A stretch of DNA of 63,950 bases, filler included, from Reclinomonas americana ATCC 50394 (Eukaryota), in the NCBI GenBank assembly GCA_048213135.1. It is 11 parts of 11 records of this genome, joined end to end, with 100 filler letters (N's around TTAATTAATTAA, not from the genome) between each part and the next. Parts side by side here need not be neighbours in the genome. Positions count along the whole stretch, not along the records: positions 41,061 to 42,790 come from AFZH01021096.1; positions 42,891 to 48,514 come from AFZH01021097.1; positions 48,615 to 54,226 come from AFZH01021099.1; 8 more parts are not named here. One strand, given 5' to 3'. The position numbers and the translations under genes are program-made. The notes beneath the pieces were generated by a model. It saw only the letters and a list, made by a program, of their open reading frames with translations. It ran no database searches and was not told the DNA's origin. Shown in pieces: positions 2,830 to 54,595 of this stretch. How positions within the stretch are numbered: position 1 is the stretch's first letter; each line of letters starts with the position of its first letter.

Positions 2830-5800
2830 ATGACTGTCACCACGTGCTCGCGGGTTGTTGAGAGTGTCTGTCGCGGTCACGACGACGACACGCTCACTAT
2901 GTTTCGTCACGATGACTACGGTGACGACGAGTCTGCGTTTATGGGTGGAGTGGTGATTGAGCAAGCACCCTCATTATCGTCGACTGTGCGTGTGCGACGC
3001 GCTGACTTTGACGACGACGATGATGATGATGAGCAAGGTCACATTGTTGAAGACGATGGTGATAGTGATGAAGAGGAGGAGGAGGAGAGAGAAGAGGGAC
3101 GCCGAGCCATGTTCGATGGCTTGTCGTTGACATCGAGTGTGTCGTTGGACTATCAAAAGGTTCTTTCCACTCGCTCGCGCTCACTCACTTCCTTCACTCG
3201 CTTGCTCACGTGCTCGTTTGTGTGTGTGTGCGTGCTCCACGTTGGCAGGAGTTTGAAGAGGGCATTGCTGAGCAGCTGCGCGGTGTGTTGAAGGCGGTGG
3301 ATAATCAGTTGTATGCGGGTGCGGTGGTGTTTGATTCTATTCCTCCATGAGGTCAAGCGCTCATCTCTCTCTCTCCCTGTGTGCGTGTGTGCGCGCGCGT
3401 AGATGGCACCTCATTGTCGTCGTCGTCGTCGTCGGCATCGCGAGCTGTCGACAATCGCATCACGTTCTGCTCGTTGGACGACATTGTGCAGTACTGTGAG
3501 CCGTGGAGGGAGGCCTATGCGTACTTTCGGTGCGCGCGCGCGCGCTTCTGTGGCGTTGGTGTCTCCTTTTCTCCATCGTATTCACCCTTGCCATTGTTGT
3601 AGCGTTCGTGGCGTGGCACCTCCGTCGGTTGCTGCCTCTGCGCCGCCGGCGGTCGTCGCTCGTCCTTCGATCGGTGGTGACGCGTCGTTTGGCTCGATGG
3701 GTCGCACGCCGGCGCCATCGATGCTGCCACCGCACGCGTCGCGACAGCTGAGCGTGGGCGATCTGGAGGCCTTGGCAGTGGCCGGCAGCGGTGTTCGTGC
3801 TGTCACCACGCCCGCCTCGTTGCTGTCGTTGCGTCTCCACGTTGTTGTCATCCCTAGTTCTTCTAGCCGCCGCTCACTGCGTGCGCGTACAGGGAGGACG
3901 ATTGCGCGCCTGGCGTGGAGGAGATTATCGAGTCGCACGGTTACTACGAGGAGTGGTTTGCTCGCGACAGTGCCCTCGATGACATTGACGAGTCGTGGCT
4001 GCTGCCGTCGACCCAGCACTCGCTGCATCCACGTAGCGCCCGTGCGCATACTCTCTCGGGCCCATCCTCTCGTGCCCCGAGTCGCACCGCACGCCAGGCA
4101 CCTTCGTCCAACATCTCCGCCGCTGCGACGAATGCCACCGCGACAGCGGCTGCTGCTGCATCGTCGCACGCACGGCGAGACGCGGCCAATGTGCGCGCGC
4201 GCTTTCTGCATCAGCATTTCCACGCTCGGTACGGGTTTCCGCTACTCGAGCACCTGTCGGCGTCAGTGGGAGCGAACAGCGGCGAAGGCGCGGGCAACAG
4301 CCACGCCCCGAATAGTGGTGTCGGACCACCGTCGTCCAGGGGTCGCACTTCGTCTTCTTCTGTCGCTCGTCATGCGTCCTCCCGGGTGCCACCCTCGCCG
4401 ACCAGCCGCAGCACGGCAGGACGGCGGAGTCAAGGTGGGCAGTATGCGTCGTCGCTTGCGCCGTCGCGCAGTCGACCGGTGGGACCAGTGCTGGCGTGGG
4501 ATTTGCCGTCGGTGTTGCTTGCCGCGTCAACAGCTTCATCATCTTCGTCATCATCATCATCAACAACTACAACAACAACAATTGCAAATGACACTGCCAG
4601 TCGACCAGTGGCTGCTAGCTCGGCCACCTCCACAGTCCCTTGGCACTGTGATCCGCACAATCGCTACGGCGTGGTGGCTGTGGCCACTCGATCCACTCGC
4701 AGTGGGATGATTAGCTCCACGCGTCGAGTATCGGCATCGGTGTCGATGTTGCGGCGGTCGGCCAAGCGTAACGAGGCAGCGGAGAGTGCAGGACTTGGCG
4801 GCGGCGGCGGTGGCTTTGTGCGGTCGTCTCGCATGTCGATGCGTTCAAGTGCAAGTGGTGTCGGTACTGTGGCGGTTGTGTTTCTCGAACTGCGTTTGTG
4901 TGCTTCGCGTGTGTTCATGTGCGTCTCGGTCTGTGCAGGCTTGACTGCTGGCTCTCGCCTCGTTTCAGCGGTGCGTTTACCCACGCATGACTTGACTTCA
5001 GCTTCTTTCATCTTACCTCAGCTCTTTCTCGGTGCACAGCAACAACCGCCATGGGAGGCATCTGCTCTGGCCGACCCGGCAGTGCACGAACGGAATCGCC
5101 GGCGTCGTGGACTGCCTCCCCTCAATCCGCAGGCCGCCGTCAAGGTGTGACGACAGTTCCGTGTTTTTGCTGCTCGGCAGCTACTCAATCCCAATATCGA
5201 TGCGCAGGAGGCCATCCAGTGGGATCTCTTGCGTGGAGTGTGGCAAGTGGTTGCGCACACGCTGGCACCACTGGTCGAAGCTTCGCTCCTTCCCAACGCA
5301 CCCGAAATCGTGGATGGTGAGTACTGACGATGCTCAATTCGCTGGCCACGTGTATGTCGCTGACAGCGCTGCTCCCAACCACACAGCTCATACGCTGTCG
5401 GCGTCACCTCTCGGTCCCAAGTGCGTACTCTTGAGCACCCACGCCAACGCTTTTTGCATCGTCGCGCTCACCGCAGCCATTCTCTCTGGTGCCACAGTGC
5501 CCTCGTCTCAGTGCCCGGTGCCTCGGATAACTCGCCTGCGCTTTCAGTACCTCACGGCCGCGCAGGCCGGGGAGCGACGGGTCCGTACGGCTCCACAGTT
5601 TCGGTGGTTGGTGTCGGCGCTCAGCGGCAAGCAGCAAGCGCTGCTCCCGTGGCTGCCGCCGCACGCTCGGCCAAGCAGATTGTTCTCTCACCACAGTTGT
5701 GTGCACGCACACCCACCATGCTTTTCCGTGCCTTACTCTCTTTCTTAGATTGGTGGATGTGGACTCGACGACGCACGTGCGATTGCGCGGAGAACAGCGT

Positions 5801-8043
5801 GCGGCCGGTGGAGGTGCTGGCGACTGGTCGCGGCCGCACGCCTCTCAAGCGCCGTCTCCGCGCAAGAGTAATCGGGCGCACGGTCCATCGGCGACTCTCG
5901 ATCTGTCGGCCTCGCTGACAGTGTCGACTGCGTCGCCGATTCTGCGCCGACAAATGAGCATGCCTGCACAAGGTAGAGTTGCATGGCGCGCTCCGTCTTC
6001 AGCTGCGCCCTGGCGACTCACACTCACTCCTTCGTGCGCAGCCTCCGGATTCTCGACGAATGGCGCCGGCGCCCGTGCAGGTGGCTCCAGCGCCAGTTCC
6101 AATCGCAGCGTGCGCAATCTCGGTACACTTGGGGCGATTGCATCCGGTCTCTCCATCACATCGCCGTCGCCCGGCCCACTGCACGACATGGCGCCGCTGC
6201 CCATCTCCATTACACCACTTGCGTCGTCGTCGCCGCAGTATCCGCGCATGAATCGGAGTGCGGTGCCGACGAGGGATGGCGGTGACGAGCGCCCGCCTCT
6301 GTTCCCTCCGATCAATCGAGGCAGTGCGGCATCGTCTCAGCAACCTACGTATCGTCCGTCGGTCTCCGCGCAATCGGGCGACGTCATGCTCTATCGCGCC
6401 ACCGCTGCCTCATCGTGGGGAGTGTCGGATCCGGTGCTGGCTGGCGCTCGTCGTGGGAGCATTGATATTGCTGCGCTTGCCACGTCTGTCATGTCGCCGA
6501 CCTCGCGAAATGGCACGGCAGGCTCGCGTCTACCGCGGCTTTCCACGACAGGCTATGGCCGTGCTGGTGTTCCGAGTCTTCCGTCGCCGCGCAATGCACC
6601 CAAGCAGCAGCGGGCGTTGCATGGTGACGGATCCCCGCCGCAGCTGCAACCGTACTACGCCCGCAACGGCGCCAAGTTGCACGACTCATCTCCGTCGCCG
6701 TTGCGTACTCGTCCCCCTCTGTGAACACAACAATGATGATGATGTCGATGGCTCACACACGCAACACAGACCACTTGGTCGTCGCAATCACGGTGCGCCT
6801 CTGCAGCAGCTGCAGCAACAGCAGCCGCAACAGCAGGCGCAGCTTCCGCTGCAACAGCAACAGCAGGCGCAACAACCGCAACAACAGCAGCAACGTGGGG
6901 CGTCGAATCGACCACAATTCGAAATGTCGGCGCACGGCGGCAGTCACACAGTCACCGTTCACAGCACCGCCGACGGCACGAGTGCTAGTGGCAGTCGCCG
7001 CGGAAGTGCTCCCTCGAAGAAGCCTTCACGCGTTCCCGCCACTGCAGGCCAGCCGCGCATGCATCGCGTGGTGACTGACGCGTTTGAGAAGCCGCACCCT
7101 GTGATGAAGGGCCGCCGGAACGACCACCTGGCATCTCGGTGATTATCCCCGCACCCTTTGAGAGTTGTTTGAGGTGCGCGCTGACACCGGAAGGGTTGTA
7201 TTCCAATTGTGTAGTGCTGGAGAGAAACCGCCACTGATTGAGCGGTTGGGAACGCCGCCGACAAGCAGTCAGCTCGGTGTGTAGCTCCACTGCGACAGCT
7301 TGTTTCACCCTTTCAATTTTTTGTCCTTTCCGTTGACCCATGTTTGGCGGCTGCACAGAGCGCGCACAGACAGCCGATCCGTCCATGCTCTCGGCGCAGC
7401 GGCGCGCCCATGTGGACGACTTGGTGTCTGCACCACATCATGTCTCGCGTTTCGCCGACCTCAGTCCGCGACTCGTCCATCCAGGCGTACAGTCGCTGTG
7501 GGTGGCCGACAAGCGCCCAAATTCTTCTGCGGCCTCCGGAGTCGGCGGAGCACCGGGTGCATCCACGACTGCCAATGTCAGACCGGCACGTGGTTTCGCC
7601 CAGCAGCTTCTCTCCATATCGTCGAGCCTGGCCGGTGAGCAACGCAGTGGCGGCAGCGCCGGCGTGGCAAACGTGGTGGCGGCCGTCTTGTCGGGGGACG
7701 AGTGGGCGTCGGTGGCTCCGCGGCGACATCCTCGTGCTGGAGGGTGTGTTTTGCGCCCTGCGCAACGCGTTTTCGTTCCACAGTCTAACATTGCTTCTCG
7801 TGTGACAGCACGACGGCCGCAAGTGGTGCCGTCACACCACCGTTGCTTGCGGGTGACAGGTCCCTGAGTCCGCCGATATCTCCTCGCCGCCGCCAGCTTC
7901 GCCACGGGTACGGCATATGATTGCGCATTCTTCTCTCTCTCCTTCTTATGCGAGTCATCCTGTCTGACTGCTGCAATTCGCGTAGACGCACCACGGCGCC
8001 CATATCTCCTCGAGTGATTGCGGAAGAAGATGTTGCGTTCTGA
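2830..8043 (+). CDS. FAM149/DUF3719-like protein, multi-exon, mostly low-complexity
   Basis: Blocks CEPWREAYAYFR|VRG, EEIIESHGYYEEWFARD and RRGLPPLNP..EAIQWDLLRGVWQVV resemble FAM149 motifs in order; phase-consistent 3' exons lead to TGA at 8041-8043; start may be ATG 2830 or 2899. Confidence 0.55.
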
Positions 8044-42427: not shown

Positions 42428-42790
42428 TCACACCGACGAGACAGTGGCGACATGACATGCAACGCTTCTCGCCGGTTTCAATCGCGACGCGGCCAGCACG
42501 GGACGCTCGCTGCGGCAACGGTCGACGGCAAGGGGGCAGCGAGGATTGAAGGCGCAGCCCGTTGGCGGGGCGAGCGGATTGGGAAGTTCGCCTTGGATTC
42601 CGGCCTTGCCCTGCCCGCGGCGCTTGCCCGGAACCGCAGCGAGCAGCATCTGCGTATAGGGATGCTGCGGAGCCTCGAACAGCTCCTGCGCCGGTGCGAC
42701 TTCGACCAGCCGGCCAAGATACATAACGCCGACCCGATCGGCGAAATGGCGGACCGCGGCGAGGTTGTGCGAAATGAAAAGGCTGGTCAG
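42428..42790 (-). CDS. Oligopeptide/dipeptide ABC ATP-binding protein, C-terminal part (DppF/OppF-like)
   Basis: [41 protein letters not shown]. Confidence 0.9.
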
Positions 42791-42890
42791 NNNNNNNNNN
42801 NNNNNNNNNNNNNNNNNNNNNNNNNNNNNNNNNNTTAATTAATTAANNNNNNNNNNNNNNNNNNNNNNNNNNNNNNNNNNNNNNNNNNNN

Positions 42891-42926
42891 TGCCTGCAGA
42901 CAGCGTCGAAGGATGAACATGATCAT
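42891..42926 (-). CDS. Start of peptide ABC permease (DppB-like)
   Basis: MIMFILRRCLQA immediately downstream of the binding-protein gene, cut by the gap. Confidence 0.6.
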
Positions 42927-42951
42927 CGGCAACCCGCCGCTCCCACCCGGC

Positions 42952-44556
42952 TCATTTCACGGTGAAAAAGCGGAGATTGACGCGGTTATCGTTCTGGACG
43001 GCGGTCTCAACCCCGGTTCGGGCGCCCCAGGTGATGCCGGGCTGGTAGAGCGGAATATGGCCGATCTCGCGTTTGTGGATCGTAAGGGCTTGGCTGACGG
43101 CCGCCTGGCGCCGTAACGCGTCCGGCTCGTCCTTGACCCGGTTGATGGCGGCGTCGACCTCGGCGTTCGAGTAGTTGCCGACATTCCACTGGCCGGCCCC
43201 GCCCTTGTCCGGCGTTTGGACGATGACGTTCAGAGGATTGTAGGCGTCGAAATCGGAAGGTCCGTAACCGAAGAAGCAGAGGCTCGTGTCGCGAGCGCCG
43301 ATCTTCGCGAAGAACTTGGACGATGGGATTGCGTTCACCGAGGCCCGGATCTCGATCCTGGCCAGCATGGCAGCGAGTGCCTGGCAGACACGCTCCGCGT
43401 TGATGTAGCGGTCGTTCGGGCAATCGAGCGTGATCTGGAAGCCCTTCGGATACCCGGCTTCCTCGATCAGCTTGCGCGCGGCTGCGGGGTCGAACTTGAA
43501 TTCGCGCCGATTGAGGGCGTTGTCGAAGGAGTTGATGTCCGAGGGCAGCACCTCGCCGATTGGTTTGGCGGTGTTGCGCATCAGCCGGGCGTTGATCGCC
43601 TCGACGTCGATCACCTGATAGATCGCCTGCCGGACGCGCGCATCCTTGAACGGATTCCTGCCCTTCACATCCGAGTAGAGCAGCTCGTCGCGGTGGAGAT
43701 CCATGGCGAGAAACATCGCGCGAACCTCGGTACCTTGCAGCACCTTCGCCTTGCCGGAGGCGTTGACCCGGTCGATGTCCTGGATCGGTACCGGATAGGC
43801 GAAATCGACCTCGCCCGAGAGCAGGGCGGCGACCCGGGTCGCGTCCGCGCCGATCTTGACGAGGGTCGCCTCAGTGACGGAACGCGGCGCCTTGTCCCAC
43901 CAGCCCTGATAGGCCTGCAGCACGGTGCGAATGTCGGGCTGGCGCTCGACGAGACGGAACGGGCCGGTCCCGTTGGCACTGCGCGTGGCGAAGTTCTCGG
44001 CGTTCTTCTTGAAGTCCGCCGGCGCCGTGGCGCCGTGCCTCTCGGCCCAGGCCTTCGACATGATCCGCAGTTCTGGAAGCGACTGCAGCAGCGCCGGGTT
44101 CGGACTGCTCGTCCTGAGTTCGACCGTATTGGCTTCGGCTCCGGCCACGACATCGGTAAGCGACGCTGTGAACACCTTCATGTCGGAGCCTGGAGCCATG
44201 GCGCGCTTGAGCGAAAAGACGACGTCCTCGACGCCGAACGGCGTGCCGTCATGGAAGGTGACGCCCTCGCGAAGCTTGAACCGCCAGACGGTCGGGGACG
44301 GGTTCGTCCACGACGTTGCGAGCGCGGGCTCGATCCGTGACTCCGCGTCGCGCCGGACGAGCCCCTCGTAGATGTGCTGCAACACGGTCAGGGTCATGCC
44401 GTGGTTGAAGGCATGCGGGTCCATCGTCGCCGCATCTTCCTGGGATGCCCATTTGATCGTCGCGGCCTGAGCCGTGGTCGCAGGGGCCGGCAGAGCCGTG
44501 GCACAGAGCGCGAGCAGCATGGCCGAGATGCAGCGGCTGGACTTGGAGAGGGCCAT
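42952..44556 (-). CDS. ABC transporter substrate-binding protein, family 5 (peptide/nickel type)
   Basis: Signal peptide; TMDPH, IYEGLV, WRFKLREGVTFHDG, NGTGPF, NPFKDARVRQAI. Confidence 0.93.
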   Translation of the reverse strand: MALSKSSRCISAMLLALCATALPAPATTAQAATIKWASQEDAATMDPHAFNHGMTLTVLQHIYEGLVRRDAESRIEPALATSWTNPSPTVWRFKLREGVTFHDGTPFGVEDVVFSLKRAMAPGSDMKVFTASLTDVVAGAEANTVELRTSSPNPALLQSLPELRIMSKAWAERHGATAPADFKKNAENFATRSANGTGPFRLVERQPDIRTVLQAYQGWWDKAPRSVTEATLVKIGADATRVAALLSGEVDFAYPVPIQDIDRVNASGKAKVLQGTEVRAMFLAMDLHRDELLYSDVKGRNPFKDARVRQAIYQVIDVEAINARLMRNTAKPIGEVLPSDINSFDNALNRREFKFDPAAARKLIEEAGYPKGFQITLDCPNDRYINAERVCQALAAMLARIEIRASVNAIPSSKFFAKIGARDTSLCFFGYGPSDFDAYNPLNVIVQTPDKGGAGQWNVGNYSNAEVDAAINRVKDEPDALRRQAAVSQALTIHKREIGHIPLYQPGITWGARTGVETAVQNDNRVNLRFFTVK

Positions 44557-44678
44557 CGAGCAGACTCCGGAAGAGTTCACGGGGACCTGCGCCAAACCGG
44601 CCCGGAGCTTCGCCAGGCCTTCAAAAACTTAGGCTTCCCCTTTATTGACTCGATCTTCCGGGCGGCTCAGCTTTGTCG

Positions 44679-44720
44679 CAAATCCATAATTGTTGGCCTC
44701 AGGCTCAGTAAAATTTAGCC
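44679..44720 (-). promoter_or_regulatory. LysR-type activated promoter motif for the transporter operon
   Basis: T-N11-A dyad CTAA-N7-TGAG (minus strand); aligns ungapped with 45638-45679. Confidence 0.65.
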
Positions 44721-45644
44721 TTGCTCCGGCAATGCGGCGACTTCCGTCTTTGCCCATTCCCGGAAGATGGCGACCTTTTCCCGGTCCGCGGCCGCTGGAG
44801 GCCAGACGAGATGGAAGCCGTAGGGACCGCTGACAGAGAGCGGGCCGAACGGCCGCACCAGCGCGCCGCTCTTCAGATCCTCCCCGGCCAGCGCAGAACT
44901 GGCCAGCGCCACGCCCTGTCCTGCCACGGCAGCCTGCAGCGTCATATGCGAGAACGAGAATCGGATGCCGCGTTGCGTATCGATCCCGCCGGCGCCGACT
45001 TCCTGCACCCATCGCGTCCAGTCGAGCTGATCGGGGATCCGTGCCTCCCATTCGTCATGGAGCAGAACATGGCCAGCGAGATCCTCGGGCGTGCGCAGCG
45101 GCGGTCCCTTGGCGAGCAGCGCCGGGCTGCAAACCGGGTAGAACTCCTCCTGTAGCAGCAGTTCGCTGGTCAGGCCGGGATAGCTGCCCCGTCCAAGGCG
45201 AATGGCGATGTCGACCTCCTCGCGCGAGAAATCGGTCAGCGGCACCGAGGCCAGGATGCGGACGTCCAGATCGGGATAGTTGTCGGTCAGCCGGCCAAGG
45301 CGCGGGACCAGCCAGCGCGAGACGAAGGAGGGCATCGCGCTGACGGTCAGGGTCTGCGAGGCCTCGATGCGCTGCAGATCGGCGGTGGCTTCGCTCAACT
45401 GGTCGAGAATGCTCGCGACGCGCGCCAGATAGCTGCGTCCGCCTTCGGTCAGGACGACGCCGCGCGGCAGCCGACGAAACAGCGGAACGCCGAGCCAGTC
45501 CTCCAGCACCTTGACCAGGCGGCCGACGGCATTGGCCGAGACGTTGAGCTCACTGCCAGCTGCATGGAATCCGCCGCGCCGGGCCGCGGCCTCGAATGCC
45601 CTGATCGCGTTCAAAGGTGGCAGCCGACGTCGTTCTTGACTCAT
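44715..45644 (-). CDS. LysR-family regulator, GcvA-like
   Basis: RLPPLNAIRAFEAAAR, LEDWLGVPLFRR, LQAAVAGQGVAL. Confidence 0.95.
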   Translation of the reverse strand: MSQERRRLPPLNAIRAFEAAARRGGFHAAGSELNVSANAVGRLVKVLEDWLGVPLFRRLPRGVVLTEGGRSYLARVASILDQLSEATADLQRIEASQTLTVSAMPSFVSRWLVPRLGRLTDNYPDLDVRILASVPLTDFSREEVDIAIRLGRGSYPGLTSELLLQEEFYPVCSPALLAKGPPLRTPEDLAGHVLLHDEWEARIPDQLDWTRWVQEVGAGGIDTQRGIRFSFSHMTLQAAVAGQGVALASSALAGEDLKSGALVRPFGPLSVSGPYGFHLVWPPAAADREKVAIFREWAKTEVAALPEQG

Positions 45645-45679
45645 CTCAGTTGAGCCTCAGCCCCAGATATCTCGATTTG
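45638..45679 (+). promoter_or_regulatory. LysR recognition site and promoter for the aminotransferase operon
   Basis: Perfect CTCA-N7-TGAG dyad (45640-45654) overlapping the LysR start codon. Confidence 0.65.
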
Positions 45680-45794
45680 TAGCGCCGGATTGAATGGCAG
45701 AAAACGAAGGAAGTTCCAAACAACCCTCACGATATTCGAGCCTATCCACTGTCCGGGCAGGAGCGAGATCGCGTGATGACGAGGCGCCGACCAC

Positions 45795-47159
45795 GTGGAC
45801 CTGCAAATTCACAGCGCGACCGACAGGGCCGCTCCCGCCAAATATCGCAAGGTCCTCACGCCCTGGGCGGTTCAGGGCAACCTGAACCCGCCGATCATCG
45901 AGCGGGGTTCCGGCAGCTTCTTCTTCGACAATCACGGAAAGCGCTATTTGGACCTCACCAGCGGCTATGTCGCCGTATCCCTCGGCCATGGTCATCCGAA
46001 GGTGGTCGAGGCCATCCAGCGGCAGGCCGAGAAGCTCTGCTGGACAGCGTCGAGCTATTTCAACGAGGTGCGCGCCGATTATGCCGAGGCGCTGTCACGG
46101 ATCTCGCCCTGGCCCGAGGAAGGCGCGCGCGCCCATTTCGCCTCGGGCGGTGCCGAGGCCAATGACGACATGGTCAAGATCGCGCGGCTGGTCACCCGTC
46201 GTCCCAAGATCCTGTCAGCCTATCGCTCCTATCACGGCAGCACAATCGGCGGCAGCGCGCTGACCGGGGTCGATCGCTGGCGCGACCCCTTCCCGAACAT
46301 CCCCGGCATCGTTCGGTTCTTTGCACCCTACCCCTACCGATCACCGTTCCACGCCGAGACCGCGGCGCAGGAGACTGCGCGCGCGCTCGATCATGTCGAA
46401 CGCATTCTCCTGCATGAGGGCGCCGCCAATGTCGCCGCGATCATGCTGGAGCCGATGACCGGATCGAGCGGGCTCGTCGTCTATCCGCCAGGATATCTCG
46501 AAGGTTTGCGCACGATCTGCGACCGCCATGGCATCCTACTCGCTTTCGACGAGGTGATGACCGGATTCGGGCGGGTCGGGAAGGCTTTTGCGAGCATCCG
46601 CTTCGGCGTCGCGCCCGATCTGCTGTCCTTCGCCAAGGGGGCAAGCTCGTCCTACACTCCGCTCGGCGGCGTTCTCGTCCGTGAGCGACTCGCCCGCTTC
46701 TTCGATGCCGAGCTCTTCGATGTCGGCCACACCCATGCCGGCCATGTGCTGGCGGTCGCGGGCGGGCTCGCCGCACTCCAGGTCTATGAGGAGGAAGGCC
46801 TGTTCGAGCGCGCGATCGAGATCGAGGCCTGGTTACGAGAGGGTCTCGGCGCCCTGCAGGCGAAGCATGCCGGTGTTGTCGGCGACGTCAGGGGGGCCGG
46901 CGCGCTGTTCGGACTCGAACTCATCTCCGATCCTGAGACCAGGGCTCCGCTCGTCGGCTGGCATCATCCGGGCGGCTCCGGGCCGATGAAGCGCTTCTAT
47001 GCGACTCTGCTCGAGCGCCGCGTTCACGCCTATGGCCGCTACAACATCGTTCTTGTCGCGCCGCCGCTGACGATCGGCCGCGAGGAACTCGCTTTCGGCT
47101 TCGATGCGCTCGATCACGCACTCGCGACTCTCGTACCGCGCTCGCACCGCCAGCCCTGA
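45795..47159 (+). CDS. Class III (omega/beta-amino acid type) PLP aminotransferase
   Basis: YLDLTSG, SGGAEAND, SYHGST, FDEVMTGFGRVG, FAKG; GTG start. Confidence 0.93.
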   Translation: MDLQIHSATDRAAPAKYRKVLTPWAVQGNLNPPIIERGSGSFFFDNHGKRYLDLTSGYVAVSLGHGHPKVVEAIQRQAEKLCWTASSYFNEVRADYAEALSRISPWPEEGARAHFASGGAEANDDMVKIARLVTRRPKILSAYRSYHGSTIGGSALTGVDRWRDPFPNIPGIVRFFAPYPYRSPFHAETAAQETARALDHVERILLHEGAANVAAIMLEPMTGSSGLVVYPPGYLEGLRTICDRHGILLAFDEVMTGFGRVGKAFASIRFGVAPDLLSFAKGASSSYTPLGGVLVRERLARFFDAELFDVGHTHAGHVLAVAGGLAALQVYEEEGLFERAIEIEAWLREGLGALQAKHAGVVGDVRGAGALFGLELISDPETRAPLVGWHHPGGSGPMKRFYATLLERRVHAYGRYNIVLVAPPLTIGREELAFGFDALDHALATLVPRSHRQP

Positions 47160-47177
47160 GATCAACGAGGAGAAGAC

Positions 47178-47978
47178 ATGGCCATCGCCCGGGAATTCTC
47201 GGATATCCGCTACGACAAGCGCGACGGCGTCGCGCGGATCACCATCGACCGCCCCGAGAAGATGAACGCCTTTCGGGCGCAGACCGTCGACGAACTGCTC
47301 GCAGCCTTCACCGACGCTGGCGCGGATCGCGAGATCGGCGTCATTGTCCTCGGCGGCGCCGGCGAGCGCGCCTTCTGCACAGGCGGAGACCAGTCAGGCC
47401 ATGCAGGCAGCTATGGCGGCCGCGGAACGATTGGCCTGCCGATCGACGAGGTCCAGAGCCTGATCCGGGACGTGCCGAAGCCGGTGATCGCGCGCGTGCA
47501 GGGCTATGCCATCGGTGGCGGCAATGTCCTCGTCACCGTCTGCGATCTCGCCATCGCCTCGGAACAGGCGGTCTTCGGTCAGGTCGGCCCGAAGGTCGGC
47601 TCGGTCGATCCCGGCTTCGGCACCGCCCTTCTGGCCCGCGGCATCGGTGAGAAGCGGGCCCGGGAACTCTGGTTCCTCTGCCGGCGCTACAGCGCCGCGC
47701 AGGCACTCGAGATGGGCCTCGTCAACGCCGTCGTGCCGCATGACTGTCTCGACGCCGAGATCGACGCCTGGTGCGCCGAGATTCTCGAGAAGAGCCCGAC
47801 GGCGCTGGCGATTGCCAAGCGGTCGTTCAATGCCGACAGCGAGAATATCCGTGCGATCGGCTCCCTCGGTTTCGAGGCGCTGGCGCTCTTCTACGCCTCG
47901 GCTGAATCCCGCGAGGGCGTCGAGGCCTTCCTTCAGAAGCGCAAGCCGCAGTTTCGCACGCGGGCGGCGCAGCGATGA
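47178..47978 (+). CDS. badI: 2-ketocyclohexanecarboxyl-CoA hydrolase-like crotonase (BadI type)
   Basis: AFCTGGDQS..GRGTIGLP..IRDVPKPVIARVQGYAIGGGNVL..FGQVGPKVGSVDPGFGT..SPTALAIAKRSFN matches BadI (GGGNVL, GSVDPG) rather than MenB (GGGHVL, GSFDGG). Confidence 0.8.
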   Translation: MAIAREFSDIRYDKRDGVARITIDRPEKMNAFRAQTVDELLAAFTDAGADREIGVIVLGGAGERAFCTGGDQSGHAGSYGGRGTIGLPIDEVQSLIRDVPKPVIARVQGYAIGGGNVLVTVCDLAIASEQAVFGQVGPKVGSVDPGFGTALLARGIGEKRARELWFLCRRYSAAQALEMGLVNAVVPHDCLDAEIDAWCAEILEKSPTALAIAKRSFNADSENIRAIGSLGFEALALFYASAESREGVEAFLQKRKPQFRTRAAQR

Positions 47979-48514
47979 TCCGCGACGAAGCGCTGTTCGC
48001 CACGCTGCTCGACACGGTCTCGCGCTTCGTCCGCGAGGTACTGGTGCCGATCGAGGAGCGTGTCGCCCGCGAGGATGCCGTTCCCGCCTCGGTGGTCGAG
48101 CAGATGCGCGCGCTCGGCCTGTTCGGCCTGACCATCCCGGAGGAATTCGGCGGCCTCGGCCTGACGGTCGAGGAAGAAGTCGAGGTCGTCCTTGTACTTG
48201 GCCGCACGTCGCCGGCCTTCCGGTCGGTGTTCGGCACCAATATCGGCATCGGCTCGCGCAGCCTCATCCTGACAGGCACGGATGAACAGAAATCGCGCTA
48301 TCTGCCGCGTCTAGCTTCCGGAGACCTCATCGCCTCCTTCGCGCTGACCGAGCCCGAGGCGGGGTCCGACGCCGCGTCGCTGCGCAGTCAGGCCCGGCTG
48401 GACGGGGAGGAATGGCTGCTCAACGGCACCAAGCGCTTCATCACCAACGCTTCTCATGCCGGCCTGTTCACCGTTTTCGCCCGAACCGGCGGCGAGGGAG
48501 CAGACGGCATCTCC
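47975..48514 (+). CDS. Acyl-CoA dehydrogenase, 3'-truncated
   Basis: GLTIPEEFGGLG, FALTEPEAGSDAASL, LNGTKRFITN; ATGA overlap. Confidence 0.93.
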
Positions 48515-48614
48515 NNNNNNNNNNNNNNNNNNNNNNNNNNNNNNNNNNNNNNNNNNNNTTAATTAATTAANNNNNNNNNNNNNNNNNNNNNNNNNNNNNN
48601 NNNNNNNNNNNNNN

Positions 48615-50074
48615 CCGGTTTCGACGTCGACGCGATCGTCGCCCGGCTGGGCAGCGCCGAGGCGAAATGCCTCATCGCGGCCCGTGGCTTCCGCCGCCGC
48701 GGCAAATGGATCGACCTGCTGGCGACCGTCGAAGCCGCTCGGGCCCGTCTGCCGAAGCTCGCGGAGATCATTGTCACCGATCCGGAGCCTGCTCCTGACG
48801 AAACGGCCCTCGAGCAGGACTGGCACGCGCTCCTGGCCGCGGGGCCATCCGGCTCGGTCGACGCCGTTTCGATGGCGCCCGACGACCCGTTCATGATCAT
48901 CTTCACCTCGGGGACGACGGGAGCTCCCAAGGGCGCGGTCCACACCCATGGGGGTTTTCCACTCAAGATCGCGCATGACGCCGCGCTGCTCTTTGACCTG
49001 GGCCGGCAGGATGTCTGGCTCTGGCCGGCTGATATGGGCTGGGTCGTCGGGCCGATCACGCTGCTGGGCGCCGGCATGCGCGGCGCGACGCTGATCTGCT
49101 ATGACGGCGCGCCCAATTTTCCGGAAACCGGGCGGCTGTCGCGGTTGATCGCGCGCCATCGCGTCACCCATTTCGGAGCGTCGCCGACCCTGATCCGTAC
49201 GCTCGCCGCTGCTGGGCCGGACGCCGTCCCGGCCGATGCCGACTTGTCTTCGCTGCGTGTCCTGATCACGGCCGGGGAAGTCATCGACCACGAGCATATG
49301 GCCTGGTTCTCGCGAAAAATCGGCGCCGGCCGCTGCCCGGTGATCAATTATACCGGCGGGACCGAGGTCTCGGGGGCGCTGCTCTCCAGCGTCGTGGTCA
49401 GGCCGATCCATTCCACCGAGTTCAACGCGCCGTCCCCGGCGATCGCCGTCGACGTCGTCGATGACAAGGGCCTGCCCGTGGAGAACGAGGCTGGAGAACT
49501 GGTGATCCGCGCGCCGTTCATCGGCATGACCAGGAGCTTCTGGCGGGATGACGCGCGCTACCTCGACAGCTATTGGCAACGCTTTCCGGATCTCTGGCAC
49601 CACGGCGATCTCGCCCTGAAGCGGCGCTCAGGCGATCACGCCCATTCGGTCTTCGAAATCCATGGCCGCTCCGACGACACGCTCAAGATCGCCGGAAAGC
49701 GTGTCGGCCCGGCAGAGGTCGAGGAGATCGCGACCGGCGTGGCCGGGTGCATCGAGGCTGCCGCGATTGGCATCGACGATCCCCTCAAAGGGCAAGCGCT
49801 CGTGCTGTTCGTGGTTGTCGGCGAGGGCAAGGGAGCTGCCGCCGGGCTGGACGTTCTGGGCGAAGAGATCGAACGCCGGCTCGGAAAGCCATTCCGGCCC
49901 TACGCGATTCATGCCGTTTCCAGCCTACCCCGGACCCGCAACGGCAAGATCATGAGGCGAGCAGCGAAGGCCGCCTATCTCGGAGCCGCCATCGGCGATG
50001 TATCCACCATGGACGATGCCTCCGTGCTCCGGCATTTCGCGGACCTGCGCCCAAAGCGCGACGAGCAAAGGTAA
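48615..50074 (+). CDS. AMP-forming acyl-CoA synthetase, 5'-truncated
   Basis: FTSGTTGAPKG, YTGGTE, WHHGD, GRSDDTLKIAGKR, PRTRNGKIMRR. Confidence 0.93.
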
Positions 50075-50099
50075 TCTGAAACACCGAAACAGGTGCCGA

Positions 50100-50500
50100 A
50101 CGGCGACCGGAGGCCGCAAAGTGGACCCGCAATCGTCGAGATGTTCATCGCGGTTTCCTTCGCCGGCATATGCAGCGCCGCGAACCTGCTGATAAAGCGG
50201 TCCAATTCGTCCTTGGGCACGACGCGTTGCGGGCAACGGTTTACAGGGTTCAATACCATTCGTGAGGGGAGGTGCTCGCGATCGGCCAACGCCTGCGCCA
50301 CGGGTGTCTACGCGCATCCTTTTCGCTCGATCTCGCGCAGCGTGAAGTGGCTGTGGTCATGTCCACGTACCAGCGGCTTCGCCTCGTCCGGACCAACTTC
50401 GACCGAGTGCCTCCCTTTCCGATCGGGTTGATATCGGACCCGGGATATTGCCCCGTCGATGACCGGCCTCACGATTTCCATCGCAACAGGAAGTGTGTTT
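50100..50500 (-). pseudogene. Probable TniQ-family C-terminal remnant, frameshifted
   Basis: AMEIVRPVIDG..SVEVGPDEAKPLVRG..TLREIER and, in another frame, HLPSRMVLNPVNRCPQRVV; resembles alphaproteobacterial TniQ tails from memory only. Confidence 0.45.
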
Positions 50501-50569
50501 CGCCGTCGCTGGGAAGGACCACAAGCCACCACCCTCATTCCGGACCATTCAATGGAGTCAGACCAGAGA

Positions 50570-51586
50570 CTAAGAAGGGGCAGTGAGCTCCTTGCTTGCT
50601 GGTGTTTCATCCGCACGGAATGTCCCGGAATCTGTACCCGCTGCCAGAATCGATCCAAAAAGCTCTGGCCTATTATAGTGACCCGCAAAATCATGAATGA
50701 ATTTCGGTATGATGACGTCCGACAAACTGACGTCTGCGTACAGAATATCTTCCCCGGGCGGCAGCGGGCCGGCAACGATATTTCCGCCCGGGCCTATGAT
50801 GCAGGTCCCGCCGTGATTGGTCGCTTCTTCCAGGAACGCGCGCGCCTGTGCGTCCAGCCCATACGCATCGATGATCGAGCTGTCGACGGCTGCACAACTA
50901 TTGATGACGAAGCACTTCAGGGCATAGGCCAATCCCTGCGTGATGACCGCGATGACCTCCGCCATGCCCAGCCCGTCCAGCGCGAGGCCGGGCCCGAAAT
51001 GAGACGGCCAGGAGGCGACGTGCACGAGCGGATAGTCGAGGCCGATCGAATACTGGAAGAGCGGGTTTGCGTTCTCGCCGCAAAGCAGGCCGCTCACCGT
51101 GCCGATATCCGTCGTCATTGAAGCCTTGCGCCCCGTTGTGCCGGGCGTGTGAACAACCCGCTCGCCGATCGTCGGGACGATCTTCTGATGCTTGTGCCGC
51201 AGAAAGCCGTCTCGATCGAAGAAGAGCTGGGTGTTGAACAACGAACCCGTCGTGCCGGCGCGCTTTTCGTTGATGCCGATGATCGCGATGACCCCCGCCT
51301 CCCGGCAGGCTCCCGAGAGGGCGTCGATACAGGGCCCCGGGACTTCGACGGCGTTCCTGAACAGCTTCTGCGAGAGCGTCAGAGCCAGTTCCGAGGTCGC
51401 CGGGATGAGCTCCTGCCAGCCCGGATGCCCGGGTATGAAGCCCTCGGGGAATCCGACGACATCGGCTCCCTTGCGCCCTGCTTCGAGGATCAGGCTGCAG
51501 GCTTTCCGCGTGCTGCGTTCGCAGTCCAGGAAAACGGGCGTGGCTTGAACGGCGGCCAGGCGAACGGTCTTGTCCAGATTGGGCAT
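50570..51586 (-). CDS. Nitrilase / carbon-nitrogen hydrolase
   Basis: Catalytic triad contexts FPEGFIPG, HQKIVPT, LCGEN; DFAGHYNRPE. Confidence 0.92.
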   Translation of the reverse strand: MPNLDKTVRLAAVQATPVFLDCERSTRKACSLILEAGRKGADVVGFPEGFIPGHPGWQELIPATSELALTLSQKLFRNAVEVPGPCIDALSGACREAGVIAIIGINEKRAGTTGSLFNTQLFFDRDGFLRHKHQKIVPTIGERVVHTPGTTGRKASMTTDIGTVSGLLCGENANPLFQYSIGLDYPLVHVASWPSHFGPGLALDGLGMAEVIAVITQGLAYALKCFVINSCAAVDSSIIDAYGLDAQARAFLEEATNHGGTCIIGPGGNIVAGPLPPGEDILYADVSLSDVIIPKFIHDFAGHYNRPELFGSILAAGTDSGTFRADETPASKELTAPS

Positions 51587-51694
51587 CGGATCCTCATCAT
51601 ACCGGTGTGGTTCGTGATGGTGTGTCTCTAGGGCTCCCGGAGCGGGGCCTCGTCGTCTCGTTCGGACGGGCTTCGAGCGAGAGCGCGCATCGGT

Positions 51695-53005
51695 TCAGTC
51701 CAGGGGCCGATGCGCGGTCTCTCGCATGGTGAGGAGCGTCGCCAGCCCGAGCAGGGACGCCGCGATGACATAGAAGCTGGGAGCGATCGACAGCCCCGTC
51801 GCTGCAATCAGCCAGGTCGCGACGAACGGAGCGAAGCCTCCGGCGACTGCTACCGCTACGCTGTAGGACGCCGACAGCCAGCCGGAGCGGATTCGCGTCG
51901 GGAAGATTTCGATCAGGGCCGCCGTCGCGGGGCCGGAGATCGCGGCCAGTGCGATCCCGAAGATGATCTGGATGCCGGTCAGCATGAGCAGCGAGGCGCC
52001 GTCGAGAAGGATCACGAACAGCGGATAGCTGAGAAGCGCGAAGGCCAGGCATCCCGCCGCGAGCACCGGCCGTCGCCCGACGCGATCGGACAGAAGGCCC
52101 ATCAGAGGCAGAACCAGCGTGTAGACGATGATGCCCACCGTGTTGGCCCAAAGCGCCTCGCTCGAGGACATGCCGAGCTGCTTCTGTGCGAAGGAGGGTA
52201 GATAGGCGAGGAAGATGTAGAATTCGACGGACCAGGCCGATGCCAGCCCGAGCACCTGCAGGGCCCGGCCGAAGGATCCACGCTGAGTCGGGGCCGCCGG
52301 CGCTGCCTTTACCGCCTCGAACATCGGTGTCTCGCCGACCATCCTGCGCACGTAAAACCCGATCGGCACGAGGATGACGCCGATCAGGAAAGGCACCCGC
52401 CAGCCCCAAGCATCGACGACGTTCGATGCGAGGATGGAGCTCAACAGCGCCGCGGTGAAGGATCCGAGCAGGATGCCGATCGACGCGCTGAATTGATTGA
52501 AGCTGCCATAGAAGCCGCGGTGGCGCTCGGGTGCCCATTCGACCATGAAGGCCGCAGCAACCGCCCATTCGCCGCCGAGCGAAAAGCCTTGCAGCAGCCG
52601 AACCATGACCAGCAGGATCGGCGCCACGATCCCGATCGTCTCGTAGGTCGGCAGCAAGCCCATCGCGAAGGTCGAGACCGCCATGATGAAGAACGTCACG
52701 AGCATGACCGGCTTGCGGCCGAGCCGATCGCCGAGACGACCGAGGACGACGCCTCCCAGAGGGCGGGCGACGAAGCCGACGCCGAAGGTCGCGAATGTGA
52801 GAAGCAGGGAGGTGACCTCGTCGGCCGGAAAGAACTTCCTGCTGATCGTCAGCGCCATGTACCCGTAAATGGTGAATTCGTACCATTCGAGCATATGGCC
52901 GATGCCGGCGGCGGCGATCGCTCGCCGGGCGCCGGTGCGGTCAGGCACCGGCACGCTGTGTTCGGATGGCTCGGAATAGGCCGTCGCTGGCATGCTCATT
53001 TGCAT
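51695..53005 (-). CDS. MFS metabolite:H+ symporter (ProP/MHS family)
   Basis: GHMLEWYEF, RPLGG..GDRLGRK, RLLQGFSLGGEW. Confidence 0.93.
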   Translation of the reverse strand: MQMSMPATAYSEPSEHSVPVPDRTGARRAIAAAGIGHMLEWYEFTIYGYMALTISRKFFPADEVTSLLLTFATFGVGFVARPLGGVVLGRLGDRLGRKPVMLVTFFIMAVSTFAMGLLPTYETIGIVAPILLVMVRLLQGFSLGGEWAVAAAFMVEWAPERHRGFYGSFNQFSASIGILLGSFTAALLSSILASNVVDAWGWRVPFLIGVILVPIGFYVRRMVGETPMFEAVKAAPAAPTQRGSFGRALQVLGLASAWSVEFYIFLAYLPSFAQKQLGMSSSEALWANTVGIIVYTLVLPLMGLLSDRVGRRPVLAAGCLAFALLSYPLFVILLDGASLLMLTGIQIIFGIALAAISGPATAALIEIFPTRIRSGWLSASYSVAVAVAGGFAPFVATWLIAATGLSIAPSFYVIAASLLGLATLLTMRETAHRPLD

Positions 53006-53082
53006 CTCCCCTCAGGGGCTCGCAGTTCGCGATGCTCCCACGGGGTCTAGATACAATTACTCGACTTATACGTGGTCAATCG

Positions 53083-53107
53083 ATATATTGATACCATGAC
53101 AATATAT
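53083..53107. promoter_or_regulatory. Palindromic operator candidate over the MocR start codon
   Basis: ATATATTG-N9-CAATATAT; 18-bp core identical to 55053-55070. Confidence 0.65.
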
Positions 53108-54595
53108 GTGCCAACACTCTCGGTCAGCGCTGCCTCGAAAGCCGACAGGATCGCGACGGCGATCGAGGCCGACATCAAGCTCGGTCGCCTGCAACCCGGC
53201 GCGCAGCTTCCGACGCATCGCGCGCTTGCGCTCGCCTTGAAGGTCACGCCGGGCACGGTCAGCCGCGCCTATGCCCTGCTCGAACAGCAAGGTTTGCTCA
53301 GGGGGGAGGTCGGTCGCGGAACCTTCGTCGCGGATCCGAAGCTGCGCTCGCCCGACGTCGTCGTCTCGGCGTCTCTGGCCGCCGCGTCGACCATCGACCT
53401 CGCGGTCAATCGCAACGCGTCGAAATGGGTCGAGGCGGCGGTTGCCGAGGCGCTTCTGTCACTCGATCGCGATGCGATGCTCGGCACGCTGATGACCTAC
53501 CAGCCCGACAGCGGCATGGTCAGGCATCGCGTCGCATGGACCCAGTTTCTCAAGGGCCTCGGAGTCGAAGCTCATCCGGATCGCCTCATCCTGACGGCGG
53601 GCGCGCAGCACGCGACCTTTCTCATCCTTTCGGTCCTGGCTTCCCCCGGGGACGTCATTCTCGCGGAGGACTTCACCTATGCCGGCTTCAAGGCGCTGGC
53701 GGATGAGCTTCGCATGCGCCCGGAGCCAGTCCGCATGGATGGGGAAGGCATCCTGCCCGACGATCTCGAGCGCGTCGCGAGGGCTACGGGGGCCAAATGG
53801 CTGTATCTCATGCCTCAGGTTCAAAACCCGACGATGGCCCGGATGCCGCCTCACCGACGGCAGGCCTTGCTCGCGGTCGCCCGAGCGCTCGACCTCCGGA
53901 TCATCGAGGACGGAGTCTATGATCCCCTCCGTCCGAGTGCGGTGGCGTCGCTCGTCACCCTCGATCCCGAACGGGTCTTCTACGTGACGAGCCTGTCGAA
54001 ATGCCTCGCCCCCGGGCTGCGGATCGGCTGCATCGTCGCCCCCGAAAGTTGGAGCAACCGGCTAGCCCGGGCGATCCGGCGTTCGATGTGGATGATTCCC
54101 GTTCTCGGCGCGGAGCTCAGCACACGCTGGATCGAAACGCAGGAGATGCCTTCGCTGCTGAGGAAGCAGCGCCGCGAACTGGAGCAACGCAGCGCCTGCT
54201 TGCGGAGCATTCTGCCGGATTTGACGNNNNNNNNNNNNNNNNNNNNNNNNNNNNNNNNNNNNNNNNNNNNTTAATTAATTAANNNNNNNNNNNNNNNNNN
54301 NNNNNNNNNNNNNNNNNNNNNNNNNNATTTGACGAAGGATGCGACCCTCGACTGCGGCTTTGCCTGGCTCAAGCTACCCGATGAGGTCCGCAGCGAGAGC
54401 GTTGTCGCCGCAGCCCAGGAGCTCGGCGTCATGATCGCGCCAACAGAGGCGTTCACGTTACGAAAAGGAGCGGGCTCCGGCTTCATCCGCCTGAATCTGA
54501 GCGCCTCCGGCAGCCTGGGCGAGCTCCAGCTCGCGCTTCAGAAGATCCAGCCGCTTCTTCGAGGCGCGTCGCTCAACGATCGCGGTTACTATTAA
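53096..54595 (+). CDS. MocR/GabR-family regulator (GntR HTH plus PLP aminotransferase-like domain), split by spacer
   Basis: LPTHRALA..VSRAY..GRGTFV; QNPT, IIEDGVY, SLSKCLAPGLRIG; contig ends overlap by ATTTGACG and join in frame (about 463 aa). Confidence 0.92.

Follow-up and report, generated by a model that had tools for sequence, protein, structure and literature searches.

A candidate bad-type hydrolytic module fed by a class III aminotransferase in the Reclinomonas americana assembly

We analyzed a 63,950-nt stretch of DNA (hereafter the window) from the assembly of Reclinomonas americana ATCC 50394 (GCA_048213135.1). It carries an operon in which a class III aminotransferase gene is followed by genes for a BadI-like crotonase, an acyl-CoA dehydrogenase (ACAD) and a CoA ligase resembling acetyl-CoA synthetase (ACS), with a LysR regulator gene transcribed divergently from the aminotransferase gene. 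Gene families were assigned with Pfam and NCBIfam profiles, and both content and order agreed with the original prediction, which had been made from the sequence alone. The four genes from the aminotransferase to the ligase are a real, conserved and contiguous operon. It is rated as a bad-type hydrolytic module fed by an aminotransferase, and we give slightly less than an even chance to the reading that, under LysR control, it would break down a beta-amino carboxylic acid through transamination, CoA ligation and hydrolytic cleavage. The earlier interpretation, a catabolic pathway for a cyclic beta-amino acid, is partly supported and survived both of the refutation checks that were run, out of three originally proposed.

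The operon and its recurrence

The window is a pseudomolecule, in which short contigs (~1.7–5.6 kb between joints) are strung together by ten identical 100-nt spacers, each made of 44 N, a 12-nt six-frame stop linker and a further 44 N. The spacers start at positions 19944, 22716, 25351, 28814, 32445, 37978, 40961, 42791, 48515 and 54227. Because these joints are artificial, gene order across any of them is no evidence of linkage, and the "gaps" that the original prediction placed at 42791 and 48515 are in fact two of the ten. The core of the operon lies on the contig at 42891–48514, and a fragment of the ligase gene lies on the next contig, at 48615–54226. A search with a 32-mer taken from the end of the ACAD fragment gave exact matches in one metagenome contig, of 327,772 nt. 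A 4,032-nt excerpt of this contig (L252) was 100% identical to window positions 46461–48514 and 99.9% identical to positions 48615–49467, with 1,125 nt between the two matches. The joint at 48515–48614 replaces these 1,125 nt of true sequence, which hold the last 201 codons of the ACAD gene and the first 175 codons of the ligase gene and nothing else. Since L252 bridges both sides of the joint, the adjacency of the two genes is real, and one of the two gaps that the original prediction had asked to be closed is now closed. Neither badH nor badK was found in the missing 1,125 nt, which leave no room for either, and loci L169 and L241 likewise run from aminotransferase through crotonase and ACAD to ligase without an extra gene; this was one of the two refutation checks.

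The aminotransferase gene (45795–47159, + strand) has a GTG start and encodes a 454-aa enzyme dependent on pyridoxal phosphate (PLP). Its Aminotran_3 domain is full-length (PF00202, E = 9e-81, residues 33–443), and the protein clears the cut-off of NF004718 (PRK06062) with 544.5 bits vs. 472. The crotonase gene (47178–47978, + strand) encodes a 266-aa member of the BadI clade, a putative retro-Claisen (C–C) hydrolase of beta-ketoacyl-CoA. The first 180 of 381 ACAD codons, covering the N-terminal and middle domains (PF02771, PF02770), are found at 47975–48514 (+ strand), and the full-length 381-aa gene is at L252:1515–2660. The last 485 of ~660 codons of the AMP-forming ligase are found at 48617–50074 (+ strand; PF00501, PF13193); its ATG, at L252:2657, overlaps the ACAD stop. 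Start and stop codons overlap by 4 nt at both the crotonase/ACAD and the ACAD/ligase junctions. A scan for promoter and terminator consensus sequences gave 2 terminator-like sites and no promoter-like one, a yield not above that of shuffled sequences.

The aminotransferase clade is rare, being present in 1 of 400 genomes in the class of G001 (G001 itself) and in 4 of 397 in the family of G404. A scan with a clade-specific, back-translated motif gave 66 matches, of which 51 were unrelated and were dropped and 15 were loci of the clade. Together with the window, L169 and L167, these made a set of 18 distinct loci, 64–77% identical to the window's aminotransferase, to which wider DNA was added; two of them (L243, L213) are cut by contig ends. 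A BadI-clade crotonase (71–74% identical) stands directly 3' of the aminotransferase at 7 of the 18 (the window, L040, L169, L238, L239, L240 and L241). L237 and L246 carry a more distant BadI/MenB-like crotonase and a ligase within 8 kb of the aminotransferase, which brings the loci with a BadI/MenB-type crotonase adjacent or within 8 kb to 9 of 18. The aminotransferase–badI linkage, whose absence elsewhere would have spoken against the prediction, was thus found to recur in this second check. The crotonase of L239 is truncated, with no ligase after it. The gene order of the window is shared by L169 and L241, and the remaining complete operons (L040, L238, L240) pass directly from crotonase to ligase, so that the ACAD is optional (three of six complete operons). 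Cultured carriers include Hydrogenophaga intermedia S1 and Paraburkholderia sediminicola, and Kordiimonas gwangyangensis has the looser form with the distant crotonase.

The surroundings of two of these loci show signs of decay or mobility. The truncated crotonase of L239 (10842–11606) is from Variovorax boronicumulans. In P. sediminicola (L240:5709–6467, 15188–15910), split fragments of a thiamine pyrophosphate (TPP) enzyme lie upstream and an IS240-type transposase downstream, and a 550-nt spacer separates the aminotransferase and crotonase genes. Near-identical DNA to window positions 45700–48514 (at least half of the sampled 31-mers) was present in 17 public runs among the matches listed, and any part of this region was present in 20 runs among the matches listed, from 12 studies; three may be the source sample. 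Among the labels of these runs are metagenomes of lake water, freshwater, bioreactors, biocrust and animal gut, along with several coded isolates.

The crotonase and the BadI family

BadI hydrolyzes 2-ketocyclohexanecarboxyl-CoA to pimeloyl-CoA. The best family match of the window's crotonase was badI (TIGR03210, 432.9 bits). Models for MenB were matched under their cut-offs (NF005637, 331.5 vs. 380 bits; TIGR01929, 311.1 vs. 342.7 bits), and hydratase families were matched far more weakly, at ~130–170 bits vs. 433 for badI. The closest solved structures were those of MenB (E = 8e-88).

Species genomes were searched for BadI-like genes, and the counts that follow concern the best 80 loci listed (67–74% identity). 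Directly 5' of the hydrolase gene, 50 loci had a BadH-like short-chain dehydrogenase/reductase (SDR; at least 50% identity), 6 a distant SDR, 1 an aminotransferase and 23 none of these; four loci with cut upstream DNA are spread over these classes. AliB was present at 42 loci. L040 is among the 80 and also carries the aminotransferase, LysR, binding protein and ligase genes. Six BadI-like genes of ~70% identity, all in bad-ali-type clusters, were examined with NCBIfam and scored 460.7–538 bits, five of them above the badI cut-off. A BadH-like SDR lay directly 5' of five of the six, with TIGR03206 above cut-off in one, and the AliB and AliA models matched beside most of them. A BadH-like SDR is therefore the usual 5' neighbor, and the aminotransferase here stands where the enzyme forming the 2-keto group would be. 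No badH, badK, aliA or aliB was found on the window's contig, in L252 or in the six complete clusters, and no homolog of BadH, BadK, AliA or AliB at 40% identity or above was found in the 9–21 kb around these clusters.

A maximum likelihood tree of the crotonases (quick search, 86 rows) was rooted on the long-branch sequence of L237, and the truncated L239 was excluded. The six full-length crotonases directly 3' of an aminotransferase formed one clade, with a Shimodaira–Hasegawa-like approximate likelihood ratio test (SH-aLRT) value of 99, nested among 79 BadI-like rows. Its sister (SH-aLRT 97) comprised nine rows, seven of which have a BadH-like SDR directly 5'. Of 112 columns conserved at 95% or above in the 79 other BadI-like sequences, 96 were identical in all six aminotransferase-linked crotonases, and position 226 (Gly to Ala) was the sole conserved column changed in all six. 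Residues aligned with G86, G133, S161, D163 and Y258 of Escherichia coli MenB, which we take to have catalytic roles, were identical. The crotonase is best regarded as representing a new BadI subclade in which the catalytic scaffold is intact and a few changes may alter the acyl pocket.

The nine sister-clade loci (L026, L013, L035, L008, L042, L048, L033, L041 and L061, at about position 10000 in each) have a context of their own that is apparently undescribed. The hydrolase gene is accompanied there by genes for a PRK08162-type acyl-CoA synthetase, a BadH-like SDR, an ACAD and two further crotonases, one of them PaaG-like. L026 additionally has a reductase of the old yellow enzyme (OYE)/FadH type. 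This context may be a variant pathway for alicyclic acids. A second, distant BadI/MenB-like lineage, 51–55% identical to the BadI-like sequences, was seen at L237:12653–13546 (− strand) and L246:17416–18186 (− strand), in a Ferrovibrionaceae chromosome and K. gwangyangensis. It is likewise linked to an ACS-like ligase and to the same aminotransferase clade.

Ligase, dehydrogenase, import and regulation

The ligases of the clusters contain ACAS_N, AMP-binding and AMP-binding_C domains. The best matches of the window fragment were acetate–CoA and acetoacetate–CoA ligase, both under cut-off (TIGR02188, 342.9 vs. 724.95 bits; NF002937, 306 vs. 639 bits). Full-length orthologs in L040 and L169 were also below cut-off (388–424 and 371–407 bits, respectively), and by these scores the ligase forms a separate subfamily within the acetate/acetoacetate–CoA ligase superfamily. 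In five of five genomes with the cluster, the best match of the window's ligase was the cluster's own ligase (48–54% identity, 378–503 bits), and the next paralog was 34–35% identical. The same search of five genomes with the aminotransferase only returned no ortholog in any of the five, the best match being 31–35% identical or missing altogether.

The ACAD is 68% identical to its counterpart at the same place in L169 and 54% identical to that in L241. It and an extra ACAD of a Pandoraea bad-ali cluster are also reciprocal best hits (59–60% identity vs. 39–42% for the next hit). In Aromatoleum, the ACAD directly 3' of badI is the pimelyl-CoA dehydrogenase AabA (PMC9795900), and the operon ACAD occupies the same position relative to the crotonase gene. 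The clostridial acryloyl-CoA reductase AcrC was one of the two top NCBIfam matches, far below cut-off. In cluster genomes without an operon ACAD, its orthologs occur in other, unrelated contexts, and of its 80 closest homologs just 6 have a BadI-like gene nearby. The ACAD was consequently rejected as a marker of a pimeloyl-CoA product; its subfamily is widespread and says little about the product.

On the other side of the regulator, a 547-aa SBP_bac_5 binding protein of a Dpp/Opp/Nik-type ATP-binding cassette (ABC) importer is encoded at 42952–44595 (− strand; PF00496, E = 1.4e-74); it matched no NCBIfam equivalog at cut-off. Binding-protein orthologs, 57–65% identical to the window's and 57–81% to one another, adjoin the cluster in L040, L237, L238 and L241, making five loci with the window. 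The C-terminal fragment of an Opp/Dpp-type ABC ATPase (42428–42790, − strand; PF08352, oligo_HPY) is 47% identical over 97 aa to the transporter ATPase of L237, and it possibly belongs to this system. Of the ABC transporter operon that had been predicted, only the binding-protein gene shares the operon's contig, and the ATPase fragment is on another, neighboring contig. The window's contig ends (42891) 61 nt past the binding-protein gene, which cuts off the genes downstream. In L040, L237, L238 and L241 an M20D amidohydrolase gene accompanies the transporter, and in L242 and L244 one stands beside the aminotransferase, for a total of six aminotransferase loci. These M20D orthologs match TIGR01891 and are 59–75% identical across loci; lower-scoring matches were the carboxypeptidase CpsA and the N-acetyl-diaminobutyrate deacetylase DoeB2. 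The recurrence of a Dpp-type transporter together with an M20D enzyme suggests that the substrate probably enters as a conjugate, N-acyl or peptide-like, and is then freed by hydrolysis. As recurrent partners, both go beyond the original prediction.

L242 (aminotransferase at 4567–5931) and L244, from two related genomes labeled Vineibacter and Reyranella, have further genes near the aminotransferase and M20D, namely those for an ACAD, a CoA-transferase of the mesaconate type, a lyase resembling CitE/RipC, a TctC receptor and an amidase of the AtzE family. They form a different downstream module for what is possibly the same amine.

The regulator (44715–45644, − strand; PF00126 and PF03466) belongs to the GcvA subfamily of LysR and passes the NF008352 cut-off with 331.3 bits vs. 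288. Homologs (47–52% identity) are divergent from the aminotransferase gene in L040, L169, L238, L241 and L166. The divergent control region is 150 nt long (45645–45794) and contains an imperfect dyad at 45664–45679, seen again ahead of the LysR gene at related loci. A loose form of the dyad pattern fitted 7 of the 11 intergenic regions compared, the window included, in a comparison made by eye and regular expression and carrying no statistics. The dyad lies ~20–35 nt upstream of the LysR start in the window and in L040, L169, L239, L240, L241 and L245. A second dyad close to the aminotransferase start was seen in L040, L238 and L245 and is absent from the window. We regard the dyads between the two genes as candidate LysR boxes.

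Beyond the ligase, and convergent with it on the same contig, the next gene encodes a carbon–nitrogen hydrolase (50570–51586, − strand). It is followed by a major facilitator superfamily (MFS) transporter (51695–53005, − strand) and, divergent from both, a GntR/MocR-type regulator with an aminotransferase-like domain (53072–54226, + strand) that is cut by the joint. These genes (50570–54226) may be a separate unit for amide or nitrile utilization. The remaining neighbor contigs hold unrelated genes, including GGDEF-EAL, carbamoyltransferase and EamA genes.

A possible route and competing explanations

We infer a route of five steps. The Dpp-type ABC importer would take in an amide or peptide conjugate, from which the M20D enzyme, encoded beside the transporter genes in relatives, would free the amino acid. 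The class III aminotransferase would then turn the free beta-amino acid into a beta-keto acid, harvesting its nitrogen, and the acetoacetyl-CoA-synthetase-like ligase would trap this unstable acid as a CoA thioester. In the fourth step, the BadI-clade crotonase would hydrate the keto group and break the C–C bond (retro-Claisen/Dieckmann), releasing an acyl-CoA; with an alicyclic substrate this product would be a dicarboxylyl-CoA such as pimeloyl- or adipyl-CoA. The ACAD, in the half of the complete operons that have it, would begin beta-oxidation.

Because the crotonase branches within the 2-ketocyclohexanecarboxyl-CoA hydrolase family, an alicyclic 2-aminocycloalkane-carboxylate would be the single most likely class of substrate, a plausible one though less likely than not. 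A linear beta-ketoacyl-CoA would normally go to a thiolase, so the BadI-type hydrolase is the main argument for a substrate that is alpha-substituted and, most simply, alicyclic. In its fullest form, the proposal is a dedicated and possibly detoxifying route for cispentacin- or 2-aminocyclohexanecarboxylate-type acids imported as conjugates, in which the aminotransferase would replace the hydratase/dehydrogenase pair and a specialized BadI subclade would open the ring to adipyl- or pimeloyl-CoA. Taken whole, this we consider rather doubtful.

Several observations weigh against a dedicated alicyclic route. The label BadI-type, as originally given to the crotonase, agrees with its best profile hidden Markov model (HMM) match and with the tree, but the score is under the badI equivalog cut-off (432.9 vs. 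467.6 bits), and changes specific to the clade are found at positions 80, 90, 121, 166, 226, 232 and 233. From both of these, the substrate of the crotonase may differ from that of BadI. BadI-like genes are scarce near homologs of the ACAD, as given above, and the M20D and permease genes are not visible in the window owing to the contig ends. We know of no natural source of 2-aminocyclohexanecarboxylate. Seven of the 18 aminotransferase loci have no crotonase or ligase in the DNA covered (L166, L167, L168, L242, L244, L245 and L227, the last with a flank of 1 kb only), and five of these seven have an adjoining LysR gene. A similar dyad occurs both at loci with the crotonase and at those with the aminotransferase only. 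At L245, the aminotransferase stands beside a TauE/SafE exporter, and the opposite strand carries an amidase, an aldehyde dehydrogenase and a gene resembling sulfolactaldehyde/hydroxy-acid reductases. The wide stand-alone distribution of the aminotransferase, together with its taurine-type relatives, is the main counter-argument, and the aminotransferase-only loci and the dyad at both kinds of locus speak for a common small amine rather than one that is exotic and alicyclic.

The stand-alone loci also bear on the role of the aminotransferase itself. Three Burkholderia loci have only LysR and the aminotransferase. In the aminotransferase tree, sequences with and without a crotonase are interleaved, the label requiring 6 changes, and 228 of 500 shuffles did equally well. 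This interleaving and the stand-alone occurrence indicate that the enzyme probably acts on the free acid, as a free amine and not a CoA ester, and suggest that the crotonase–ligase module is an add-on that would handle its oxo product. The aminotransferase had been predicted to replace BadK/BadH, and its gene does sit at the badH position. It is no dedicated replacement, since the aminotransferase is often alone with LysR in genomes without a ligase ortholog.

The strongest competing explanation sees in the aminotransferase a general omega-aminotransferase of the taurine/beta-alanine type, whose substrate would be a common small amine freed from an amide. The crotonase–ligase(–ACAD) genes would then handle a small oxo-acid product or co-product, for example a short linear or alpha-branched 3-oxoacyl-CoA, and no ring would be involved. 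The closest solved relative of the aminotransferase is the taurine:2-oxoglutarate aminotransferase Toa (6jix, E = 2.8e-89, residues 18–443), to which it is only distantly related. Toa is the source of database names for the homologs. About 85 database clusters are 67–91% identical to the window's enzyme, some named "taurine--2-oxoglutarate transaminase" and others "class III-fold PLP-dependent enzyme"; the former name is used by several sources, and names for parts of the operon are generic or transferred. Aminotransferase-only loci are as frequent as crotonase-linked ones, L245 has the exporter, aldehyde dehydrogenase and reductase-like gene near its aminotransferase, and the ligase is a short-chain enzyme of the acetate/acetoacetate type. 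Toa itself operates with enzymes that handle sulfoacetaldehyde and not with CoA enzymes; no sulfoacetaldehyde enzyme was found on the window's contig. A system for N-acetyltaurine has a like make-up, in which a LysR regulator and an amidohydrolase are joined by an ABC transporter of five components (PMC4334477). In a comparison for naa homology, Cupriavidus genomes had many M20D paralogs (45–52% identity) and no clear ortholog. On the other hand, a thiolase would suffice for linear 3-oxoacyl-CoAs, and the crotonase is nested among the hydrolases of textbook bad-ali clusters, to which it is ~70% identical. In addition, an aldehyde dehydrogenase is absent from the operon, and taurine offers the ligase no carboxylate. 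We consider this explanation unlikely, if one to be weighed seriously.

Deamination at the CoA level, as in beta-valine catabolism, is improbable. The ligase would here activate the beta-amino acid, a crotonase-fold enzyme would remove ammonia to give an enoyl-CoA, the ACAD would be an enoyl-CoA reductase or dehydrogenase, and the aminotransferase would be parallel or accessory. The pathway of Pseudomonas sp. SBV1 does combine a CoA ligase (BvaA) with two enoyl-CoA-hydratase-like ammonia lyases (BvaB1/B2), and so resembles the operon in using a ligase and crotonase-fold enzymes through a CoA thioester (PMC4619459). The place of AcrC among the top ACAD matches would also agree with it. However, the BvaA ligase is of the phenylacetate-CoA type and not ACS-like, its lyases are hydratase-like and not of the BadI/MenB type, and that route has no aminotransferase (PMC4619459). 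By its profile scores the window's crotonase goes with BadI/MenB and not with the hydratases, which makes an ammonia-lyase route less likely, and no other member of the cluster is as constant as the aminotransferase.

A common bad-ali pathway for cyclohexanecarboxylate with badH/badK in the gap, or a chance neighborhood of unrelated genes, is very improbable. The badI family match, the reciprocal best hit of the ACAD in Pandoraea and the position of aabA 3' of badI in Aromatoleum (PMC9795900) would suit the former. It is contradicted by the gap sequence in L252, which holds no further gene, and by the six complete clusters, which have no BadH, BadK, AliA or AliB homolog at 40% identity or above in the 9–21 kb around them. 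The gene order recurs in separate genomes, genes of the operon overlap, and in genome G562 the cluster crotonase is the sole BadI/MenB-type gene.

Comparison of the proposed beta-amino acid route with known systems locates what would be new in it. The bad-ali pathway (AliA, AliB, BadK, BadH and BadI; Rhodopseudomonas palustris and Aromatoleum sp. CIB) shares with the operon a BadI-family hydrolase, ~70% identical and nested in the same tree, and the use of CoA thioesters. The operon differs in having no AliA, AliB, BadK or BadH, with a class III aminotransferase at the place of badH; in its ligase, which is ACS/acetoacetyl-CoA-synthetase-like and not AliA-like; and in the Dpp-type binding protein and M20D amidohydrolase linked to the aminotransferase cluster. 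In Aromatoleum an ACAD (aabA) likewise comes after badI, and the regulator is BadR, in contrast to the GcvA-subfamily LysR of the window (PMC9795900).

Among aminotransferases, 3-aminobutyryl-CoA aminotransferase is a class III enzyme that produces a beta-ketoacyl-CoA. This acyl-CoA beta-transaminase of the alternative lysine fermentation is reported to act on 3-aminobutyryl-CoA (PMC3149608). Its substrate is a CoA ester, whereas the window's clade also occurs alone without a ligase, favoring the free acid. AmcC, the class III transaminase of cispentacin biosynthesis, aminates the keto group of 2-oxocyclopentanecarboxylate bound to an acyl carrier protein (ACP) (PMC10698177). Like the window's enzyme, it is a PLP-dependent transaminase of class III, and it works on a cycloalkane-carboxyl thioester at the 2-keto/2-amino position, in the reverse of the proposed step. 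It differs in being biosynthetic, in its ACP-bound substrate and in its ornithine or lysine amino donor (PMC10698177).

A literature search, judged largely from titles and abstracts, found no description of this gene set, in agreement with the original prediction that the layout was new, and the pathway appears to be undescribed. If the proposed route is true, transamination would be a second way to feed the ring-opening (retro-Dieckmann) step of BadI, in place of hydration and oxidation, and the crotonase and ligase would represent a new specificity subclade of BadI and an acetoacetyl-CoA-synthetase-like ligase for larger beta-keto acids. The operon would also give a first handle on soil and freshwater Proteobacteria that use beta-amino acids, antibiotic ones included, as sources of nitrogen and carbon, and would supply enzymes for biocatalysis with cyclic beta-amino acids. 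Even with a linear substrate, hydrolytic cleavage of the BadI type would be unusual in an amino-acid pathway, and the alicyclic reading, if true, would make this the first breakdown pathway to be described for carbocyclic beta-amino acids.

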